A stretch of DNA of 38,373 nt, from positions 1 through 38,373 of IMG/VR virus record IMGVR_UViG_3300027819_000003, one strand, 5' to 3'. Shown piece after piece: positions 3,452 through 38,373 of the stretch (positions within the stretch are counted from its first letter, which is position 1; each line of letters opens with the position of its first letter). The DNA is from a virus (Duplodnaviria > Caudoviricetes). The position numbers and the translations under genes were made by a program. The notes under the pieces were generated by a model. It saw nothing but the letters and a program-made list of their open reading frames with translations, was not told the origin of the DNA and made no database searches.

Positions 3452-3636
3452 CGATCCCCCTTTAAGAATGCCTGCCAGCAGACTGCATATACCACTCCCA
3501 AGGGGCCTCCTATAGCTATGCCTAGAGCGAACAACGCACCTACAGGACTGACATCCGTGGGCACATTCATCAACACAAGCCATAGCACAAATAAGATAAC
3601 TATCATGCCTAGCAGGAGAACGTCCCGGATGGTCAT
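3448..3636 (-). CDS. Two-TM membrane protein
   Basis: Two hydrophobic helices; ATGA coupling. Confidence 0.65.
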   Translation of the reverse strand: MTIRDVLLLGMIVILFVLWLVLMNVPTDVSPVGALFALGIAIGGPLGVVYAVCWQAFLKGDR

Positions 3637-3983
3637 TGCTGTGCTCGCTGTCCTGGTGACGGCTCGCACAGCTCAAACTCAACAGCGTAGCACCGTCGGC
3701 CTTCTGCTATCGTGTCACGCTTGCCGATAATCTTATTGATATAGGCCATGAAATAGGCCCAGGACTCAAAGCCCTCCGCCTGTGCTTCGGCTTCCGTCAT
3801 GTGGTCTAGCGGTTGCTCCCACACCCTCAGAATACGGATACGGAGGTCAGTCTTGTGATAGTAGCTGGTCTTGACTTGGTGGACTGACCCTGCCTTCACT
3901 CTGGGGCGACGCCAGAAACGGCGGGTCTGGGTTTTGTTGCCAGATCGGATAAGGTCAACCATCTCAGTCTTAAACAGGATCAC
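3633..3983 (-). CDS. ASCH domain protein
   Basis: ILFK...IRSGNKTQTRR and EAEAQAEGF motifs; GTG start after AAGGAG. Confidence 0.85.
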   Translation of the reverse strand: MILFKTEMVDLIRSGNKTQTRRFWRRPRVKAGSVHQVKTSYYHKTDLRIRILRVWEQPLDHMTEAEAQAEGFESWAYFMAYINKIIGKRDTIAEGRRCYAVEFELCEPSPGQRAQQ

Positions 3984-4013
3984 CTTGCGTCTCCTTCTGC
4001 GTCTATACTTCCG

Positions 4014-4089
4014 CCACACCCTCCCAGTGACCTCGGACTGGTGGCAACCGACCAAAGCGCCCATATCCGAGGTCACTGGGAGGGTGTGG
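4014..4089. repeat. Perfect 24-bp inverted repeat with 28-nt spacer (intergenic)
   Basis: CCACACCCTCCCAGTGACCTCGGA (4014-4037) and its reverse complement (4066-4089). Confidence 0.95.
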
Positions 4090-7035: not shown

Positions 7036-7277
7036 GATTGCTCCTTCCTCAGCAGGTCCCACGAGTACCACTCACCGTCCAGTCTGTACTGCCGCTTGGT
7101 GGACAGCTCAAACATGTGACTCACGCCAGGATAGCCACAGCAGACCAGCATCCAGACGTTGCCTCGACCTCCAACCCATCGGTGGTCCGTGACCGTCCGG
7201 GCGTCACACAGCGGGCAGAGAAACACCGTGTGGCGATGGTATTCGTACTCGCAGGGCTGTGTTATCGTTGTGGTCAT
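7032..7277 (-). CDS. Cys/His-containing hypothetical protein
   Basis: CPLC; ATGA coupling. Confidence 0.6.
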   Translation of the reverse strand: MTTTITQPCEYEYHRHTVFLCPLCDARTVTDHRWVGGRGNVWMLVCCGYPGVSHMFELSTKRQYRLDGEWYSWDLLRKEQS

Positions 7278-7456
7278 GATAGCCCGCCATAGCCATCGCC
7301 ATAGCCATCGCCATAGCCAGAGCCAGAGCCATCGCCATAGCCATCGCCATAGCCAGAGCCAGAGCCATCGCCATCGCCATCGCCATCGCCATCGCCATAG
7401 CCATAGCCAGAGCCATAGCCAGAGCCATCTAGTGTTAGTGTTAGGATATATTCCAT
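7274..7456 (-). CDS. Gly-rich (G-Y/D/S)n repeat protein
   Basis: GSGYGSGYGYGDGDG...; start after GGAGG; coupled to neighbours. Confidence 0.75.
   Translation of the reverse strand: MEYILTLTLDGSGYGSGYGYGDGDGDGDGDGSGSGYGDGYGDGSGSGYGDGYGDGYGGLS
7286..7429. repeat. Hexamer tandem array, 24 units of GCCATA/GCCATC/GCCAGA
   Basis: Directly visible. Confidence 0.95.
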
Positions 7457-7886: not shown

Positions 7887-8105
7887 ATGATGACTACACA
7901 TACCGCGCAAAAACCACTAAAAGAATATTTGTTGGCCTGGCGCAAGGGTAACCGGTTGAGCCTCCGTGAGGCGGGCCGAAAGTTTGGCGTCTCACACCAG
8001 AGGTATGTTCACTGGGAGAGCGGGAATAATTTGCCGCAGGGCGCCTATCTCCAAAAGGTGATGGTGGAGCTACGCCTGCGGATTGAGGAGATTGATTTTG
8101 GATAG
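7887..8105 (+). CDS. XRE/Cro-CI-like HTH regulator
   Basis: LSLREAGRKFGVSHQRYVHWESGNNLP. Confidence 0.88.
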   Translation: MMTTHTAQKPLKEYLLAWRKGNRLSLREAGRKFGVSHQRYVHWESGNNLPQGAYLQKVMVELRLRIEEIDFG

Positions 8106-8940
8106 AGCAGGGGATCAATCGCGTGAGGCGAAACATCTCTGGCCGGTAATCGAGCCGCGATCGGGTGTTGTTGGTTTCTATCGAGACTATAAAGAGCCCT
8201 TAGTGGCGCTGCCGGATGGCGGGTTTGGGTATGAGGGTGTCTTGCTCTACGATGAGTGGGCCGAAAAGGTCCAGTGTCATATTTGCGGGCAGTGGAAGCG
8301 AGGCTTGGGGGTACATGTATGGACTAAGCACCGTCTACGTGCCGCCAGTTACAAGGACCTGTACGGGCTGAACCAGAGCACGGCGCTAGTAGGCGAGTCA
8401 ACCCGGGAACATCTGATAGCAAATGGTCTGCGCAATATCCACCTGTTGACACCGGAGGCCAATAAACGCGGCTTGCTCGCTGCGAGGAAAGCTGTCAGCG
8501 CGAGTAGACGAACAGGACGCTCCACAGTGGAGGCGCAAAACAAGAAGGGGATTTGCGCGGCACAAATCCTGGTATGGCTACAGGAGCACCCCGATGCTAA
8601 GCGCGATACAGCCGATCAGAGTATAGCTTCGGCGGCCATCCGCACATTTGGGAGTTGGAGTAAAGCGCGACACATGGCAGGTCTAGCTGCGCGTAACGTA
8701 AACTGGCAGGAGAAATTCGACAAAGCCCTGGGGATCGCATCTCTCAGGGCCTTTGCTGTTAGGTACGATCGACCCCCAACTCGGTCAGATGCGGACCGAG
8801 GGCTAGTTGTTTACGCCGGTCACCGGTACGAAACAGCCTTTGGGACATGGCGCAATGCCTTAGCGGCGGCAGGCTTACAGACTACTAAGCAAGGAGTAGC
8901 AGTATTATGCAGGAGTATGAACAATGACAAAAGGATATAG
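8098..8940 (+). CDS. MucR/Ros-like Zn-finger protein with two homing-endonuclease-associated repeats
   Basis: CHICG...HVWTKH...YKDLYGL; FGSWSKARHMAGL and FGTWRNALAAAGL; TTG start chosen after GAGGAG (start uncertain). Confidence 0.72.
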   Translation: MDRAGDQSREAKHLWPVIEPRSGVVGFYRDYKEPLVALPDGGFGYEGVLLYDEWAEKVQCHICGQWKRGLGVHVWTKHRLRAASYKDLYGLNQSTALVGESTREHLIANGLRNIHLLTPEANKRGLLAARKAVSASRRTGRSTVEAQNKKGICAAQILVWLQEHPDAKRDTADQSIASAAIRTFGSWSKARHMAGLAARNVNWQEKFDKALGIASLRAFAVRYDRPPTRSDADRGLVVYAGHRYETAFGTWRNALAAAGLQTTKQGVAVLCRSMNNDKRI

Positions 8941-13741: not shown

Positions 13742-13840
13742 ATGGCAAGTGTTATCGCGCAGATATGGATTAAAACCATACGGGCCTGTGCGCAAGCCGG
13801 GTGCCAAGCTTGCAGGCAAATATTGGAGGACTATGGATAG
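13742..13840 (+). CDS. 32-aa Cys-containing microprotein
   Basis: MASVIAQIWIKTIRACAQAGCQACRQILEDYG* fills the terL-portal gap. Confidence 0.4.
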   Translation: MASVIAQIWIKTIRACAQAGCQACRQILEDYG

Positions 13841-15755
13841 GCCAAGCCGTGACTATATCGAGGGCCTGCTAACGTGGACCGGCGGCGGCTTTGACAAAGC
13901 ACCGTACACGTCCGCCACAGGAGCCACGCAGACCGCCACGGCCGGCGGCGCGTGGGGCATCTTCCGCGAGCGAGTGGCCCGCGAGATGAAGTTCAACCGC
14001 TTGGAGTTCGACGATGAGGTAAAGGGCGACGGCGGCAACATCAAGTATTTCCCCAACGACTTTCGCATACTCCTAACGGCAACTGGACCCTCAAAGGTAC
14101 GTGCCGCCTATAACCAGGTCTTTGTGGCCGACCCGCAGGTCAAGGTCGAGATACCGGAGGGATACCGCACTGACAGCACGAGAGAGGCCGCAGAAGACCC
14201 TTTGACGAACTACCTGCTGGCCTGTGTGCAGAGCGACGAACGGCAGGGTGACAGCGCGCCGCTCGTGCTGATGAAGATGAACTGCATCGCCTACGGTCTT
14301 GGAGCTATCCAAACCACATGGAAGCGCAACGCATATCCAAAGGAGCCTGTGAGGAAGAAGGGCGAGAGTCAGTCCGATTGGGACGAGAGGAAGAAGCAGT
14401 GGCACGCCATCTGCACCGAGACCGACCCCTTCGAGACGAAATCACTCCATCCTCTCTCGGTAGCGTACGATAGAGCGCACAAACCGCCGCGGTGGGCGCT
14501 CACGGTCGAGACAACGACGCCCTGGGATGCGGCCGAGGACTATCCGTATTGGGCCGAGCACAGAGCTTATGACCGCGCTCATGCAGTGCCCGACAACAGC
14601 AACACCTTGTTGACCAAAGTCTGGTTCTGGTCTAACGAATGGTGTGCCTGCTACATAGACGGCGAGCCTGCGATAGGTCCCGGCTCTAGCAGCGGCGAGT
14701 ACAAGGCCGACGAGAACGGCGTGGCCAAGAATCCCTACGGATTCATACCGATAGACTTCGCGCCCGGCGGGCACGGCGACCAGGACCCCGACAACCGACC
14801 GGAGTACGAGCTTGTTGGCATATACAAGAACATGCTTGACCTGCTGCTGGCCGAGGCCTCATGCTTCACACTCGAGGAGATATACCGGCAACAGGCATCG
14901 TACGGCAACAAGAAAATAGTCACAGCGTCAGACCAGGGCACGGCAGACCGCATTGAGCGAGCGCTCGTGGGCGGGCCTAACCAGGTGGTGAAAATTCTAC
15001 AGGGCAAGGCCACCGTGCAACAGCTAGAGCAGGGACAACTACCGCAGGTCCTGACAGACCAGAGGGAGCGACTGAAGCAGGACATAGACACCGCCTCGGT
15101 GCATGACATAGCGACCGGCGCCGGAAGCCCAACAGAGGCCGCACGGAGAACGGCGCTTCGTCTTGTACAGACTGACAAGCAGGTGGCGCAAGCGGCCACC
15201 AACATCGAGCAGGCGATGGAAAGCAACCTACGCAAGCGCCTACTGATGATCAAGAACGTCTACAAGAAGTCCGTTGGTCGCAATGTCGCGCCACGAGGAC
15301 AGAGGGCTTCGTACGTCTCGCTGAAGCCTGAAGATATTCCGTCCGTGTTCACCGTCACGGTATCGCTCATTGGAGACACCGACGAGCAGAAGCAGCAGAA
15401 GCAGGACGCGGGCAACGCTAGGCTGGGTATATCGCTGGACATGGACACATACTGGCGAGACTACGCCGACGAGAAGCATCCGGACAAGATCAGACAGGGG
15501 CTACTGAACGACCTGGCGTTTGAGAACGTGATAAAGCCTGCGTATATTCAAGCGCTCAACGGTGAATTCCCGAAGATACTGGCAGAGGTGGCAGCGGAAG
15601 AGGGTATAATATACACGAATGAGGAATTACAGGCGAACCTACCGCCGCCGCAACCGCAGGTAGACCCGATGACAGGGCAGCCCATACAGCCTGTGGCGCC
15701 ACCGCAGAACGGAGCGCAGCCTGTGGGTGGGCCTCCAATGCGAGTTATGGGATAA
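13833..15755 (+). CDS. Portal (head-tail connector), podovirus type
   Basis: ~640 aa directly after terL; NPYGFIP motif; P/Q-rich C-terminus; ATG after GGAGG. Confidence 0.8.
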   Translation: MDRPSRDYIEGLLTWTGGGFDKAPYTSATGATQTATAGGAWGIFRERVAREMKFNRLEFDDEVKGDGGNIKYFPNDFRILLTATGPSKVRAAYNQVFVADPQVKVEIPEGYRTDSTREAAEDPLTNYLLACVQSDERQGDSAPLVLMKMNCIAYGLGAIQTTWKRNAYPKEPVRKKGESQSDWDERKKQWHAICTETDPFETKSLHPLSVAYDRAHKPPRWALTVETTTPWDAAEDYPYWAEHRAYDRAHAVPDNSNTLLTKVWFWSNEWCACYIDGEPAIGPGSSSGEYKADENGVAKNPYGFIPIDFAPGGHGDQDPDNRPEYELVGIYKNMLDLLLAEASCFTLEEIYRQQASYGNKKIVTASDQGTADRIERALVGGPNQVVKILQGKATVQQLEQGQLPQVLTDQRERLKQDIDTASVHDIATGAGSPTEAARRTALRLVQTDKQVAQAATNIEQAMESNLRKRLLMIKNVYKKSVGRNVAPRGQRASYVSLKPEDIPSVFTVTVSLIGDTDEQKQQKQDAGNARLGISLDMDTYWRDYADEKHPDKIRQGLLNDLAFENVIKPAYIQALNGEFPKILAEVAAEEGIIYTNEELQANLPPPQPQVDPMTGQPIQPVAPPQNGAQPVGGPPMRVMG

Positions 15756-16223: not shown

Positions 16224-16709
16224 CTAGCGGGAATATCTCCCACGGGCACGGCCCTTACTTACCATATCTCGCACATTATCGTGATTAGTGCCTAGAAACA
16301 GATGCTCGGGTCTAACACATGGAGGATTATCGCACCTGTGGCAGACAAACAGACCGTCAGGGATATGGCCATAGTGGAGAAGCCAGGATACGCGTGGAGC
16401 CATCAAATACTGAGGCTGTGTATGTGGAGCATTTTTAATATGTCCATAGCCTTTTTGGGCTTTACTGCCAGTCCATACCCAACAATCACCAGGCTCATCA
16501 GAAACAAGCACATATTTCCAAAGCCTAGTCTCAAGGGATTGAATAGGATGATTGTTACTATAATGCCCGCGCCTCGCATGACCCCTAATAAAACGCATAG
16601 GGACACCTCTTACGCGGTTAAGACTTCGGTCAGTACGGGTAGGGATCGTGGTGGGCTTCTTACAGCCGCATTCACAGAGGCCGTAAGAGGTGCTAAACTG
16701 AAGTTGCAT
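16224..16709 (-). CDS. HNH homing endonuclease 1
   Basis: CWVWTG...GYG...VCHRCDNPPCVRPEHLFLGTNHDNVRDM; N-terminal CECGC...RFIRGH. Confidence 0.95.
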   Translation of the reverse strand: MQLQFSTSYGLCECGCKKPTTIPTRTDRSLNRVRGVPMRFIRGHARRGHYSNNHPIQSLETRLWKYVLVSDEPGDCWVWTGSKAQKGYGHIKNAPHTQPQYLMAPRVSWLLHYGHIPDGLFVCHRCDNPPCVRPEHLFLGTNHDNVRDMVSKGRARGRYSR

Positions 16710-16790
16710 GGAAGGTGTACTCCTTTCGTGCCACCCCTCAGGACGTTAGTAGCGTCGCTGAGGCTATTTGTATTTGTAGGTATTATACCA
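16710..16790 (-). promoter_or_regulatory. Extended -10 promoter plus structured RNA leader of HNH1
   Basis: TGgTATAAT; CCUCAG-C-GACG-CUACUAA-CGUC-CUGAGG hairpin; GUGGCAC; AAAGGAG. Confidence 0.75.
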
Positions 16791-18175
16791 TGACGAAGTT
16801 TCGCGTACTATCTGGCGGATTGCCATATAGAAATCAGGTTGGGGTTAGTCAGCGCTATGGAAACCCCGATGCTAGATATTCTAAGGGATATAATCAGGGT
16901 GAAGATTATCCCTTTGCAGAAGGTACTCCTATACCCTTTGAATATAGTGGCAGAGTTATAGATGTTGGGAATCATCCGCAATGGGGTACATACGTCACAG
17001 TTCGTGATGATAATGGATATAGTCAGCAGTACAGCCATTTATCGGAAGTCAACGTAAGCGTAGGGGATCGAGTCGAGGAAGGCCAGACAGGCATTAAGTC
17101 TGGCAGCACGGGGTGGGTAACAGGCCCTCATCTCGATTACACAGTTAGAGACCCCGACGGCAACGACATTGACCCTCAGAGCTACGAGGGAGAGGACGAT
17201 GACGATATGCAGCAGATTATTCCAGGTGACACAGGTGACGCCGATAGAGGGTATAGCGGCTTACCGGACGAAGAGCCGGAGGTTATACCAGGCAGCGGCG
17301 GCATTGTTGGCATACCCGTTACAGCGCCGGACGGCACGATACTGGGCTGGAACGTTGTGGAGACGGAGGCCGTGCCCGAAGCGGGACTTCCGGCCAAATA
17401 CAAGTTCATCCCGGCACCAAAGGCCACAGCCGGCTCCCAGCCACGTTCGGCCTCGGCGCTTGCCAAGCTGGATGATAGCCATACTAGAGAGGTGGATGCT
17501 CATGAATATGAGTACCGGCAGGGCCGCGATGCCATAAACGATGAGCGATACAAGGAAGAGAGAGACTACAACAGAGCGATAGATGAAGGCCGCTATGCCG
17601 ATGCTCAGGCTATCAAAGAGCGCATCACGGCATTACAGGAAAAACAGCAGCAATTAGATGAGGACTTCAGGCGCTTTAAGACCACGCTCGATGAACAGTA
17701 CCGCAGGGATACGCTGAAGCTACAGGCTGAGTTAGGCTATGCCTACTCTCGCCGCCAGGATGTGTCTCTGGGGTTACAGCGGCAGAATCAAGCCTTCAAC
17801 CAGGAACAGACGCAGATAGAGAACGCCAGAGCCACGGCCAGCAGGCCAAGCTCATATCTGGAATACGCCTTTACAACGGCTGGCGTGAAGCCGCCGCCGG
17901 GTACCAGACTGGCAGATGTTATGGCACGGATAAAGCCCACGCCGGGAGTAGAGGACTATCTCAACCAGCAGTTCGGACAGCCTGCACCAGGGGCCACCAC
18001 AGGCCCACCAGCCAATGTTGTTGGCGGGAATGGCCCATCACTAGGGCCGAGCGCAGGACCTAGCCTGGGGCCGTCTCTAGGGCCTTCTGCAGGACCTTCG
18101 TTAGGCCCGCCGGCGCAGTATGACGAAGCATCTATTATCCAGGAGTTAGAGCAGATACGCCGAGGAGGTGTGTAA
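16790..18175 (+). CDS. Putative internal virion protein with N-terminal degenerate M23/LytM domain, coiled coil and GPS(L/A) repeats
   Basis: YSHLSEVNVSVGDRVEEGQ...SGSTGWVTGPHLDY; start uncertain. Confidence 0.8.
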   Translation: MTKFRVLSGGLPYRNQVGVSQRYGNPDARYSKGYNQGEDYPFAEGTPIPFEYSGRVIDVGNHPQWGTYVTVRDDNGYSQQYSHLSEVNVSVGDRVEEGQTGIKSGSTGWVTGPHLDYTVRDPDGNDIDPQSYEGEDDDDMQQIIPGDTGDADRGYSGLPDEEPEVIPGSGGIVGIPVTAPDGTILGWNVVETEAVPEAGLPAKYKFIPAPKATAGSQPRSASALAKLDDSHTREVDAHEYEYRQGRDAINDERYKEERDYNRAIDEGRYADAQAIKERITALQEKQQQLDEDFRRFKTTLDEQYRRDTLKLQAELGYAYSRRQDVSLGLQRQNQAFNQEQTQIENARATASRPSSYLEYAFTTAGVKPPPGTRLADVMARIKPTPGVEDYLNQQFGQPAPGATTGPPANVVGGNGPSLGPSAGPSLGPSLGPSAGPSLGPPAQYDEASIIQELEQIRRGGV

Positions 18176-35989: not shown

Positions 35990-36946
35990 ATGAAGCTCTC
36001 CACTCACTCTCAAGGCAACAGCGGATGGCCGGCCTTCAACGTGTTGGATGTGCTGGCGAGCCGTGCCGAATACGCCAAGTGGATAGACCCGCCGGCCGCG
36101 GCCGCTCGCAAGGTGCGAGACCTGGGGATAAGGCTTATTGTGAGGCATTATGGTGCGTGGGATAATGACTGGTCTCTGTTCGATCCTGCCGCCTTTGTGG
36201 CAGACTGCCAATCGCAGGAATGGTGGACCTACGCATGGGCCATAGAAAGCCCCAACGAGCCTCATCCTGGCGATACTCTACAGCTCTCCAACCTGGTTAT
36301 CAGACTGGCGAATGAGGGCAAGCAGTGTATCGTCGGCAACTGGGGCACAGGATGGGACGGCGTCTGGGTGCCCGGAGCTAAATACTACGGGTGCCACGAA
36401 TACGGCCGCGCAACACTGCTGGATAGCACCCCCTGGCACGCTCTACGTTACCGTTCGTGGTTCCCCTCAGTGTTGGCTAACCAGCCGGATGCACAGCTTT
36501 TCATTACTGAGTGCGGCGTGACACAGGCGCTGGACGGTGGACCTGACATTGGGTACAGAGCAAACGGCACCACGCCCGCAGAGTATTGGGCCACGTCTCT
36601 CTTGCCTTACAACCGTGAGCTTGAGAAGGACACCTACGTACGCAAGGCTTTTGTCTACCAGTTCGGAGCCAACACTGACTGGGAGACGTTCGAGTGTGCA
36701 GGGACCGAGATAGAACAGTTATTGATAGCCTCGTATAAGGAGGGACTCGCAATGGGGCCAGACTTAAAAGACACATATTCAGCAGAGTTCACCGCATGGT
36801 GGAACGCTGGCGGCTGGCGCAACTTCGCGAGCTTCTTGGTGGCAACGGGAAGCATCGACGCCACGCAGGGCGAGATACGAACGCTGGTCAAAGACCGGCT
36901 AGAGTCCAGCGTCAAAGAAGCCGTTATATTTATGGATGCGCTCTAG
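35990..36946 (+). CDS. Putative endolysin, clan GH-A-like glycoside hydrolase
   Basis: ESPNEP acid/base, CHEYG, LFITECG nucleophile; follows the holin. Confidence 0.72.
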   Translation: MKLSTHSQGNSGWPAFNVLDVLASRAEYAKWIDPPAAAARKVRDLGIRLIVRHYGAWDNDWSLFDPAAFVADCQSQEWWTYAWAIESPNEPHPGDTLQLSNLVIRLANEGKQCIVGNWGTGWDGVWVPGAKYYGCHEYGRATLLDSTPWHALRYRSWFPSVLANQPDAQLFITECGVTQALDGGPDIGYRANGTTPAEYWATSLLPYNRELEKDTYVRKAFVYQFGANTDWETFECAGTEIEQLLIASYKEGLAMGPDLKDTYSAEFTAWWNAGGWRNFASFLVATGSIDATQGEIRTLVKDRLESSVKEAVIFMDAL

Positions 36947-37406
36947 AGCGCGCACGGCCTACCATACGATGTTTTTCAGTCGCGTCTCTGACATTCTCGC
37001 GTTGAGTAGCCAAAAATAAATGAGATGGCCGAACGCATGGAGGATTATCACAGCGGTGACAGACACACAGACCTGGAGGAATTGGGCCAAAATGTATCTC
37101 CCAGGATATGCGATGGGCCTTGCCTCTGTCCAATTTACCGTAACCGTCGGGAGTGCATGAATGAGTCCATATCCAGCACTCTCCCAAAGCAGCTATGTGC
37201 GAAGGGATGGGGCCGTCTTTGTTGACCTTAGCCCAAAAACGTTGGACAAGAGGCAGAGCTTGGAGCTTTCCGCTATGACCATGTATAAAACGCAGGGGTT
37301 GACCTTTGATACGCCCATGCTTTCTGACAGTCGCAGAGGCAAGCTTGGTAACCTGGCCACAGCCGCACTGACAAAGACCGAGGGGAATGGTAGACTGAGG
37401 TTGCAT
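36930..37406 (-). CDS. HNH homing endonuclease 2 (paralog of HNH1)
   Basis: CQCGCG...RFIHGH; RFWAKV...CWIW...AHRISW...VCHRCDNPPCVRPSHLFLATQRENVRD. Confidence 0.95.
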   Translation of the reverse strand: MQPQSTIPLGLCQCGCGQVTKLASATVRKHGRIKGQPLRFIHGHSGKLQALPLVQRFWAKVNKDGPIPSHIAALGECWIWTHSCTPDGYGKLDRGKAHRISWEIHFGPIPPGLCVCHRCDNPPCVRPSHLFLATQRENVRDATEKHRMVGRARSRAHP

Positions 37407-37640
37407 GGAAAGCTAACTCCTTTCTGTGCCACGCTCTGGGCGGTTACAGCCGCGCCAGGGCTTTTGTTATTTAGAACTATTATAACACAAAGAGGTGAGA
37501 CCATGAACAAAGCAATAATGGAGCATGCCCTAAATACTGCATGGGGAATAGCAGAATTGCTAGAAGCATTGAAATCAGAATATGCTCAACAGCTTAAAGA
37601 CGCTGTCATAGCCATTAAGTCTGAGACCTTAGACTCACTC
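36944..37640 (-). mobile_element. Free-standing HNH cassette 2 interrupting the lysin locus
   Basis: Antisense HNH with own promoter and leader plus an AT-rich 48-codon ORF; boundaries inferred. Confidence 0.6.
37407..37487 (-). promoter_or_regulatory. Extended -10 promoter plus structured RNA leader of HNH2
   Basis: TGtTATAAT; CCCUGG-C-GCGG-CUGUAA-CCGC-CCAGAG hairpin; GUGGCAC; AAAGGAG. Confidence 0.75.
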
Positions 37641-37690: not shown

Positions 37691-38086
37691 GTGAACAACG
37701 ATAACCTCTTTGGCACACCCGATCCCATCTATACCGAGCTTGGATATTTGGGCCACCCAGGGTGTGACTTCCTGGCGCCGCAGGGCACACCGGTACGGGC
37801 GAGCGCCGACGGTATTTGCACAACTGCCCGGGCTGTCGGCACCGCCGGCCTAATGATACGCTTGGAGCATGAGGCCTACGGTTATGCTACCAGGTATCTC
37901 CATCTCAGTGGCGTTCTAGTTGGTGAGGGGATGCACGTCAAGCGAGGGCAGACCATAGGGCTTACGGGCAACACGGGACTGTCTACGGGGCCCCACCTGC
38001 ATTTCGATGTCTATGACTACAGGGAGTCGGTGCTGAACGGATACGGGCAGAGGGTAGACCCGCTGCCACTATTGGAGGCGATATGA
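37640..38086 (+). CDS. M23 family peptidase (lysis); frame open from 37625, annotated GTG at 37691
   Basis: HPGCD, YLHL, TGNTGLSTGPHLHF, VDPLP with intact Zn ligands. Confidence 0.92.
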   Translation, partial: PFISRPSFLRPVDERWPVNNDNLFGTPDPIYTELGYLGHPGCDFLAPQGTPVRASADGICTTARAVGTAGLMIRLEHEAYGYATRYLHLSGVLVGEGMHVKRGQTIGLTGNTGLSTGPHLHFDVYDYRESVLNGYGQRVDPLPLLEAI

Positions 38087-38276: not shown

Positions 38277-38373
38277 AGCAAATGTATACAATCCTCTTCG
38301 TGCGGCATTAGGGTAGCCTCTGGATTAGCACCACGATAACCAGCAGCATCAGTCAGCCTACAGCAATCTACGC
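38277..38373. repeat. Terminal direct repeat, right copy
   Basis: Identical to 1-97. Confidence 0.97.

Follow-up and report, generated by a model that had tools for sequence, protein, structure and literature searches.

A conserved two-hairpin module heading phage HNH endonuclease genes and other mobile genes: a candidate cis-antisense RNA

Two HNH endonuclease genes of one phage genome begin with the same structured leader, which raises the question of what the structure does and on which strand it acts. The window analysed here is a whole IMG/VR virus record of 38,373 bases; it has direct terminal repeats at its ends (97 nt, positions 1-97 and 38277-38373) and represents a complete phage genome, either circular or terminally redundant. 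On the plus strand, domain calls identify terminase-like, capsid and M23 peptidase genes. Copy 1 of the HNH gene is inserted against plus-strand structural genes, and copy 2 against plus-strand genes, adjoining an M23 peptidase gene. The two HNH_3 proteins are 51% identical, and several named relatives of their N-terminal CxCGC domain are found in Chloroflexota records. M23 peptidase genes (plus strand, 16790-18175 and 37691-38086) lie directly downstream of each HNH cassette, and this neighbourhood is possibly a shared target or tolerated site for both.

Each HNH gene is headed by a module of approximately 110 bp. The initial annotation had described a single layout for both leaders, and all of its elements could be read on the minus strand at the following positions.

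16224..16709, minus strand: HNH_3 endonuclease gene copy 1, 161 aa, N-terminal CxCGC domain, predicted target
16782..16790, minus strand: copy 1 extended -10 element TGgTATAAT (TG 16790-16789, TATAAT 16787-16782), predicted HNH promoter
16763-16758, 16757 and 16756-16753, minus strand: copy 1 bulged hairpin 5' arm, CCTCAG, bulged C and GACG
Minus strand, next: copy 1 hairpin loop CTACTAA, then CGTC, then CTGAGG at 16741-16736
16734-16728 and 16727-16720, minus strand: copy 1 downstream words GTGGCAC and GAAAGGAG, then 10 nt and the ATG at 16709
36930..37406, minus strand: HNH_3 endonuclease gene copy 2, 158 aa, N-terminal CxCGC domain, predicted target
37479..37487, minus strand: copy 2 extended -10 element TGtTATAAT (TG 37487-37486, TATAAT 37484-37479), predicted HNH promoter
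37460-37455 and 37454, minus strand: copy 2 bulged hairpin 5' arm, CCCTGG and bulged C, then GCGG
Minus strand, next: copy 2 hairpin loop CTGTAA, then CCGC, then CCAGAG at 37439-37434
37432-37426 and 37424-37417, minus strand: copy 2 downstream words GTGGCAC and GAAAGGAG, then 10 nt and the ATG at 37406

An A-rich tract lies between the TATAAT and the bulged hairpin of copy 1 on the minus strand. The start codon of the neighbouring M23 gene (ATG 16790-16792, plus strand) overlaps the copy 1 HNH promoter at the promoter's first T. A covariance model built from 35 leaders, including both window copies, recovered these two and, below E 0.9, nothing further in the window. Used as a pattern in IMG/VR, GTGGCAC...GAAAGGAG...ATG gave 10 matches, none with the hairpin or an HNH gene, so these words are not a family signature. 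Elsewhere in the window, the ORF at 8083-8940 encodes an HNH-associated repeat (PF18780) and a weak ROS/MUCR domain, and has no module upstream. A perfect 24-bp inverted repeat with a 28-nt loop (4014-4089), in the region of the 5' end of the minus-strand ORF 3633-4076, lies outside the module and gave only a sub-threshold miRNA-type Rfam match. An array of 6/12-nt repeats (7262-7451) lies inside the minus-strand ORF 7204-7428 and would encode a Gly-rich low-complexity peptide.

Homologous leaders were collected by two routes. Scans with HNH and CxCGC alignments yielded 80, 23, 80, 80 and 30 loci; a 10-sequence N-terminal alignment was used for searching, a 21-sequence alignment being too loose. 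From these loci came 178 different starts of CxCGC genes, of which the window contributed three. Set A (n=38) consists of 36 homologous leaders picked by eye and the two window copies, and control set C (n=116) of the remaining, motif-negative CxCGC genes, leaving out set A duplicates, seven ambiguous leaders and genes without an in-frame start. The second route was an HNH-independent pattern scan of IMG/VR, with the outer stem fixed and two inner pairs left free, which gave 120 loci and 107 distinct matches from 41 of the 64 parts of the collection. Removal of 10 matches without leader context and 3 without a usable start left set B (n=94), chosen regardless of coding sequence. Copies within the sets are partly non-independent.

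The 35-leader covariance model found leaders outside its training set, always on the strand of the gene. Across 58 aligned copies of the 11-pair helix, 90.1% of cells were paired and 144 cells were changed on both sides; slid controls paired at 31-52%, and none of 500 shuffles reached the observed values, by a statistic that leaves the relatedness of the copies uncorrected and uses an alignment fitted to the structure. Among the 107 distinct pattern matches, the free inner-stem positions were Watson-Crick in 198 of 214 cases. The initial annotation had held that the stems covary, and had proposed a covariance model from homologous leaders as a check; such a model was built, and the aligned copies bore out the covariation. 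Judged by its sequences, the leader is a real conserved, covarying structured RNA module, beyond chance. The bulged C is kept in 47 of the 58 copies and the loop-closing G-C in 56. The hairpin loop occurs in both orientations (C..A 38, T..G 13), and a YUNR loop was present on either strand in 42 of 58 copies and on neither in 16, counts that stand without a chance control.

The strand on which this structure folds best is not that of the mRNA. Copy 1 folds at -30.8 kcal/mol (z -4.55) on the plus strand versus -21.5 (z -2.46) on the mRNA strand, and copy 2 at -32.1 kcal/mol (z -3.90) versus -24.0 (z -1.71), a gain of 8-9 kcal/mol for the plus strand in both. The second small stem, previously described as covering the RBS, is indeed present in both copies, but on the mRNA strand it pairs only weakly; the opposite strand forms it strongly, and there its patchy pairing becomes an unbroken 10-pair helix with two G-U. 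Similarly, the 'one mismatch' reported for copy 2 is correct as read on the mRNA strand, but does not hold as a mismatch on the plus strand, since it is a U-G pair there. The RBS hairpin folded better antisense in 83 of 94 set B leaders and in 33 of 38 set A leaders; when set B was de-replicated at 70% identity, this held for 74 of 85. Set C showed the opposite trend, with the sense strand folding better in 74 of 116. The set B fold from hairpin to start codon averaged -11.2 antisense versus -7.6 sense, with shuffles at -6.4 on both strands, and the mean z was -2.3 antisense versus -0.65 on the mRNA strand.

The mismatches were similarly one-sided. Beside Watson-Crick helices on the mRNA strand we counted 123 A·C, where 42 were expected from shuffles, and 28 G·U, where 28 were expected; in the bulged hairpin the counts were 31 A·C versus 5 G·U. 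As an A·C on one strand is a G·U on the other, this pattern places the selection of the structure on the antisense strand. Exceptions exist: 11 of the 94 set B matches fold better on the mRNA strand, and the copy in Streptomyces phage Kromp scored -33.4 sense versus -31.0 antisense.

A promoter-like box facing the gene accompanies the antisense fold. An antisense TAnnnT within ATG+3..+22 was found in 37 of 38 set A, 84 of 94 set B and 24 of 116 set C leaders (shuffle means 6.7, 13.2 and 22.9, respectively), and an antisense -10 at offsets +7 or +10 in 32 of 38, 55 of 94 and 4 of 116. Beyond the two window copies, the antisense -35 is weak. The sense extended -10 was strong in 32 of 38 set A leaders, 23 of 93 set B leaders and 11 of 114 controls; given its low frequency in set B, it is less well conserved than the antisense box. 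Where the upstream gene runs in the same direction, 19 of 23 leaders retain the antisense -10, and the box is therefore more than an outward promoter. A promoter scan called 3 sigma-70-type sites per 2 kb, with 1.6-1.8 expected, so that the promoter signal lies in the shared register and not in the site count. By consensus match, an opposing promoter is thus predicted to be conserved at the 5' end of the target. The predicted antisense features of the window are the following.

16671..16699, plus strand: copy 1 predicted antisense promoter, inside HNH codons 4-13 (-35 TTCACA 16671-16676, 17 bp, TG at 16691, -10 TAAACT 16694-16699)
16705..16776, plus strand: copy 1 predicted ~72-nt antisense RNA, ends inferred, complementary to leader, RBS and AUG
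16706..16731, plus strand: copy 1 stem-loop I, 10 pairs, two of them G-U, spanning anti-AUG and anti-RBS
16736..16763, plus strand: copy 1 stem-loop II, the bulged hairpin, 6 bp, bulge, 4 bp, loop UUAGUAG
16764..16776, plus strand: copy 1 U-rich tail, imperfect, opposite the A-rich tract
37368..37396, plus strand: copy 2 predicted antisense promoter, register identical to copy 1 (-35 CTGACA 37368-37373, 17 bp, TG at 37388, -10 TAGACT 37391-37396)
37402..37474, plus strand: copy 2 predicted ~73-nt antisense RNA, ends inferred
37403..37429, plus strand: copy 2 stem-loop I, 10 pairs, two of them G-U
37433..37461, plus strand: copy 2 stem-loop II, followed by a U-rich tail at 37462-37474

The bases of copy 1 stem-loop I also form the weaker RBS stem on the mRNA strand. 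Stem-loop II is predicted to serve as both recognition loop and terminator stem. The length of the antisense RNA, by a rough rule, is 57-73 nt in set B, compared with 72-73 nt in the window.

We consider it probable that the module encodes a cis-antisense RNA that acts as a brake on the translation of mobile genes. The two facing promoter boxes would produce the HNH mRNA and an antisense RNA of ~70 nt with two hairpins, which would start at the AUG and end at the bulged hairpin and U-rich tail. By pairing with the nearly co-extensive leader, RBS and AUG, this RNA would block ribosome loading. Pairing may begin loop to loop at the bulged hairpin and spread over the RBS and AUG, and convergent transcription could add interference. 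The proposed recognition loop would be a pyrimidine-U-N-purine U-turn on either strand, with the bulge four pairs below the loop. Such U-turn (YUNR) recognition loops were reportedly described by Franch in 1999 in antisense or target RNAs, and in CopA/CopT a bulge near the loop aids strand exchange. With differing stems and loops, each copy would mainly answer to its own RNA, leaving the two cassettes independently controlled. The brake would hold down genes for DNA cutting, integration or replication as long as their element is resident or present in many copies; in a newly entered cell, where the antisense RNA has yet to accumulate, it would permit a surge of expression. The genes headed by the module (nucleases, integrases, Rep, excisionases and Cas1) are typical targets of antisense control.

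Termination is the weakest step of this model: the U-tail is imperfect, and a terminator scan called a canonical terminator in neither window copy. A GC-rich stem is present, yet at least 5 U in 8 nt of tail were found in only 23 of 48 copies, and in copy 1 late plus-strand transcription must pass the hairpin into the M23 gene. For this reason the main rival, although an unlikely one, is an outward promoter: the plus-strand promoter in the HNH start would drive the host-phage genes that lie downstream and make up for the polar effect of an insertion in backward orientation, and the hairpins would stabilise or attenuate that transcript without silencing the HNH mRNA. The imperfect tail fits such a role, as does copy 1, where the U-tail is directly followed by the M23 RBS and ATG; moreover, a crude ORF rule placed the upstream ORF opposite in 30 of 34 scored module-bearing HNH genes of set A versus 35 of 99 controls. 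However, the 19 of 23 co-directional loci that keep the antisense -10 offer it nothing to drive, and stem-loop I always spans the RBS and AUG of the target. The two roles may coexist. A cis-only mRNA attenuator of the T4 or IS200 type, in which the second hairpin hides the RBS and AUG while the bulged one stabilises the 5' end, seems less probable still. In its favour, the mRNA strand does form a stem across the RBS and AUG, 32 of 38 set A leaders carry a strong sense extended -10, and RBS-sequestering hairpins are established for T4 endonucleases (PMC2988022), but neither the three-fold A·C excess without a G·U excess nor the antisense -10 box is explained by attenuation. By analogy with IS200, cis attenuation may instead form a second layer.

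The initial annotation had favoured a cis-acting element tied to the HNH protein, that is, a pseudoknotted switch, a self-processing RNA or a binding site for the CxCGC domain, which we now regard as very improbable. Its proposed loop-GUGGC pseudoknot exists as complementarity in both window copies, but across 93 copies permuted partners pair equally well: the longest loop/downstream helix was 3.34 versus 3.28 permuted (p 0.16, 93 distinct pairs), or 3.52 versus 3.48 with the closing G (p 0.34), with p 0.10-0.13 for Watson-Crick pairs only and 0.14-0.54 antisense. The conserved bulged C and loop-closing G-C could mark a ligand or protein site, but no curated Rfam riboswitch or self-cleaving ribozyme model matched and no conserved pseudoknot was found. 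The supposed link to CxCGC was also unsupported, as the module stands on only ~1/5 to 1/4 of CxCGC genes, 116 of which lack it, and specificity for HNH was lost with its occurrence before HNH genes without CxCGC and before unrelated genes. The antisense-selected fold and the antisense -10 favour an antisense RNA over a switch or self-processing RNA. To a DNA-level hairpin, acting as a single-stranded DNA recognition or recombination site that aids cassette movement, we give the least credence. The module is always beside mobile genes and its loop occurs in both orientations (C..A 38, T..G 13), but its spacing to the RBS, AUG and two promoter boxes is fixed, its wobble bias is one-sided, and the loci have neither a common transposase nor a matching second end.

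The range of genes headed by the module is broad, and upheld the earlier proposal that it travels with mobile genes. Of the first 80 pattern loci, ORFs of at least 40 aa were present at 63, and one of these, with a mis-picked start, was dropped. Pfam assignments for the remaining 62 downstream proteins comprised 15 HNH_3, 7 HNH, 3 EndoVII, 3 GIY-YIG-like, 3 serine recombinases, 2 tyrosine integrases, 3 Rep and 2 HTH_36, and 24 were without a family. In genomes sampled by phylum, the model matched at least 7 of 151 genomes in the phylum of G001 and at least 18 of 151 in that of G005, counts that are lower bounds, with 25 candidates scored per genome. Read from their translations, these copies head integrase-, recombinase- and excisionase-like genes; the 20 proteins scanned from 24 genome matches gave 4 Cas1, 2 integrase-like, 3 HTH_17, 1 LuxR, 1 SWIM and 1 DUF4352, none HNH, and 8 without assignment. 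Cultured soil phages also carry the module: Kromp, a phage of Streptomyces lividans, at gene 32 (about MH744420.1:26351-26433), and EvePickles, a phage of Arthrobacter globiformis, at gene 43. The named module loci come from Chloroflexota and Actinomycetota records and soil phages, and one strict pattern by itself recovers about 200 IMG/VR stretches. A blastn search of plasmids with the leader returned one 30-nt chance match.

Several individual loci deserve mention. The four Cas1 genes headed by the module (L440, L442, L458 and L463, in genomes G272 and G285) lie in ~3-kb loci with no other cas gene evident, several beside a co-directional ORF of ~400 aa, and are possibly mobile solo Cas1 genes. 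Rolling-circle-type Rep genes (PF23343) are headed by the module at L379, L395 and L396, and the start of a Rep gene is the classic setting of countertranscript copy-number control. At L223, two copies of the module (352-455 and 1283-1388) lie within 1 kb on the same strand and precede different ORFs. By eye, L195 carries a close homologue of copy 2, inserted backwards beside a look-alike of the window gene at 1875-2585, a place different from that of either window copy. A search of IMG/VR for relatives of the portal-like protein (13749-15755) found none, and no empty insertion site was found for comparison.

We speculate, tentatively and as a reading that we consider doubtful, that the module belongs to an uncatalogued family of antisense 'heads' swapped among mobile genes (HNH, GIY-YIG, EndoVII, tyrosine and serine integrases, Rep, excisionases and solo Cas1) throughout the mobile elements of Actinomycetota, Chloroflexota and the phages that infect them. 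A host RNA chaperone shared by them would recognise the invariant bulged-C/G-C core, and elements of one loop group would silence one another in trans. If so, the freely covarying stem and loop would define incompatibility-like specificity groups, and matching loops would confer superinfection or homing immunity.

Homing endonucleases are throttled by cis hairpins, and transposases and plasmid Reps by antisense RNAs; one portable antisense module serving free-standing nucleases, integrases, Reps and Cas1 would join both kinds of control, and would account for the backward insertion of toxic genes, together with their own control elements, into phage operons. On the antisense-brake model, the odd N-termini of many of the headed proteins (H/D-T-T, Q-S-T) would be a by-product of the embedded promoter, and the module could offer natural orthogonal antisense pairs for GC-rich hosts.

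How does the module compare with systems already described? The initial annotation had likened it to the regulated endonuclease genes of T4, a comparison that fits loosely, as a hairpin over the RBS of a homing endonuclease. The T4 late promoter is located inside the hairpin. RBS-sequestering hairpins are established for I-TevI/II/III, segB and mobE of T4/Aeh1, and are cis-acting and relieved by the hairpin-associated late promoter (PMC2988022). The module would share with them the tight control of a toxic nuclease, but the likeness ends at cis action and the late-promoter switch: its sense promoter lies upstream of both hairpins, its fold is better antisense and its opposing promoter is conserved. 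A T4-type regulatory hairpin was rejected for the module on the weak mRNA-strand stem (mean z -0.65) and the promoter upstream of both stems.

The earlier statement that no named RNA family could be assigned stood up to an Rfam check: the whole window, each leader alone, and 13 + 20 homologous loci gave nothing above gathering at the module. A published description was likewise not found in the literature at the level of titles and abstract openings. The top match on copy 2 was ctRNA_pGA1 (RF00236), aligned over the whole model, on the plus strand, to the predicted span (37403-37477); at 13.6 bits (E 1.6, gathering 45) the score is at chance level, a further Rfam run gave no match, and membership was rejected. 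In Corynebacterium plasmid pGA1, the ctRNA and the start of rep overlap (PMC9592669). RepX, or R1162 RNA (RF00043, gathering 55 bits), was also rejected, as its model matched neither the window leaders nor 33 homologous loci; reciprocally, our covariance model R1 gave RepX 6.6 bits in the wrong orientation. RepX is ~75 nt long, with two stem-loops, and extends over both the RBS and the start codon of the target gene (PMC8136791). The module shares with it (locus L439) the two stem-loops, the ~75 nt and the position over RBS and AUG, but the RepX target is IncQ repA, unlike the targets of the module.

Structured RNA candidates from IMG/VR lying no more than 25 bp from HNH, NUMOD4, GIY-YIG and integrase genes were reported by Fremin et al. 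2023 (PMC10690425). The six HNH-linked candidates that were looked up come from human-gut Firmicutes phages or aquatic, mostly marine, phages, sources unlike the Chloroflexota and Actinomycetota records and soil phages of the named module loci. The Fremin 2023 and Weinberg 2017 collections may hold the module as an unnamed candidate.

Closer parallels are found among insertion sequences, where IS10 RNA-OUT/RNA-IN and IS200 art200/tnpA repression begins by loop pairing (PMC4513863). Like RNA-OUT and art200, the module would specify in cis a structured RNA that is antisense to the start of a mobility gene and covers the RBS and first codons, and the IS200 mRNA also has an SD-sequestering stem, as does the mRNA strand of the module. 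It differs from the IS10 and IS200 RNAs in its sequence, its bulged 6+4 bp hairpin and its lack of an Rfam match; it is also not tied to one transposase, heading nucleases, integrases, Rep, excisionase and Cas1 genes in phages and in integrated elements instead. Antisense control itself is thus of a known type, while the module that would exert it is widespread and without an Rfam match. By analogy, the module most likely acts like RNA-OUT, art200, RepX and the plasmid ctRNAs, and stands outside their Rfam families.
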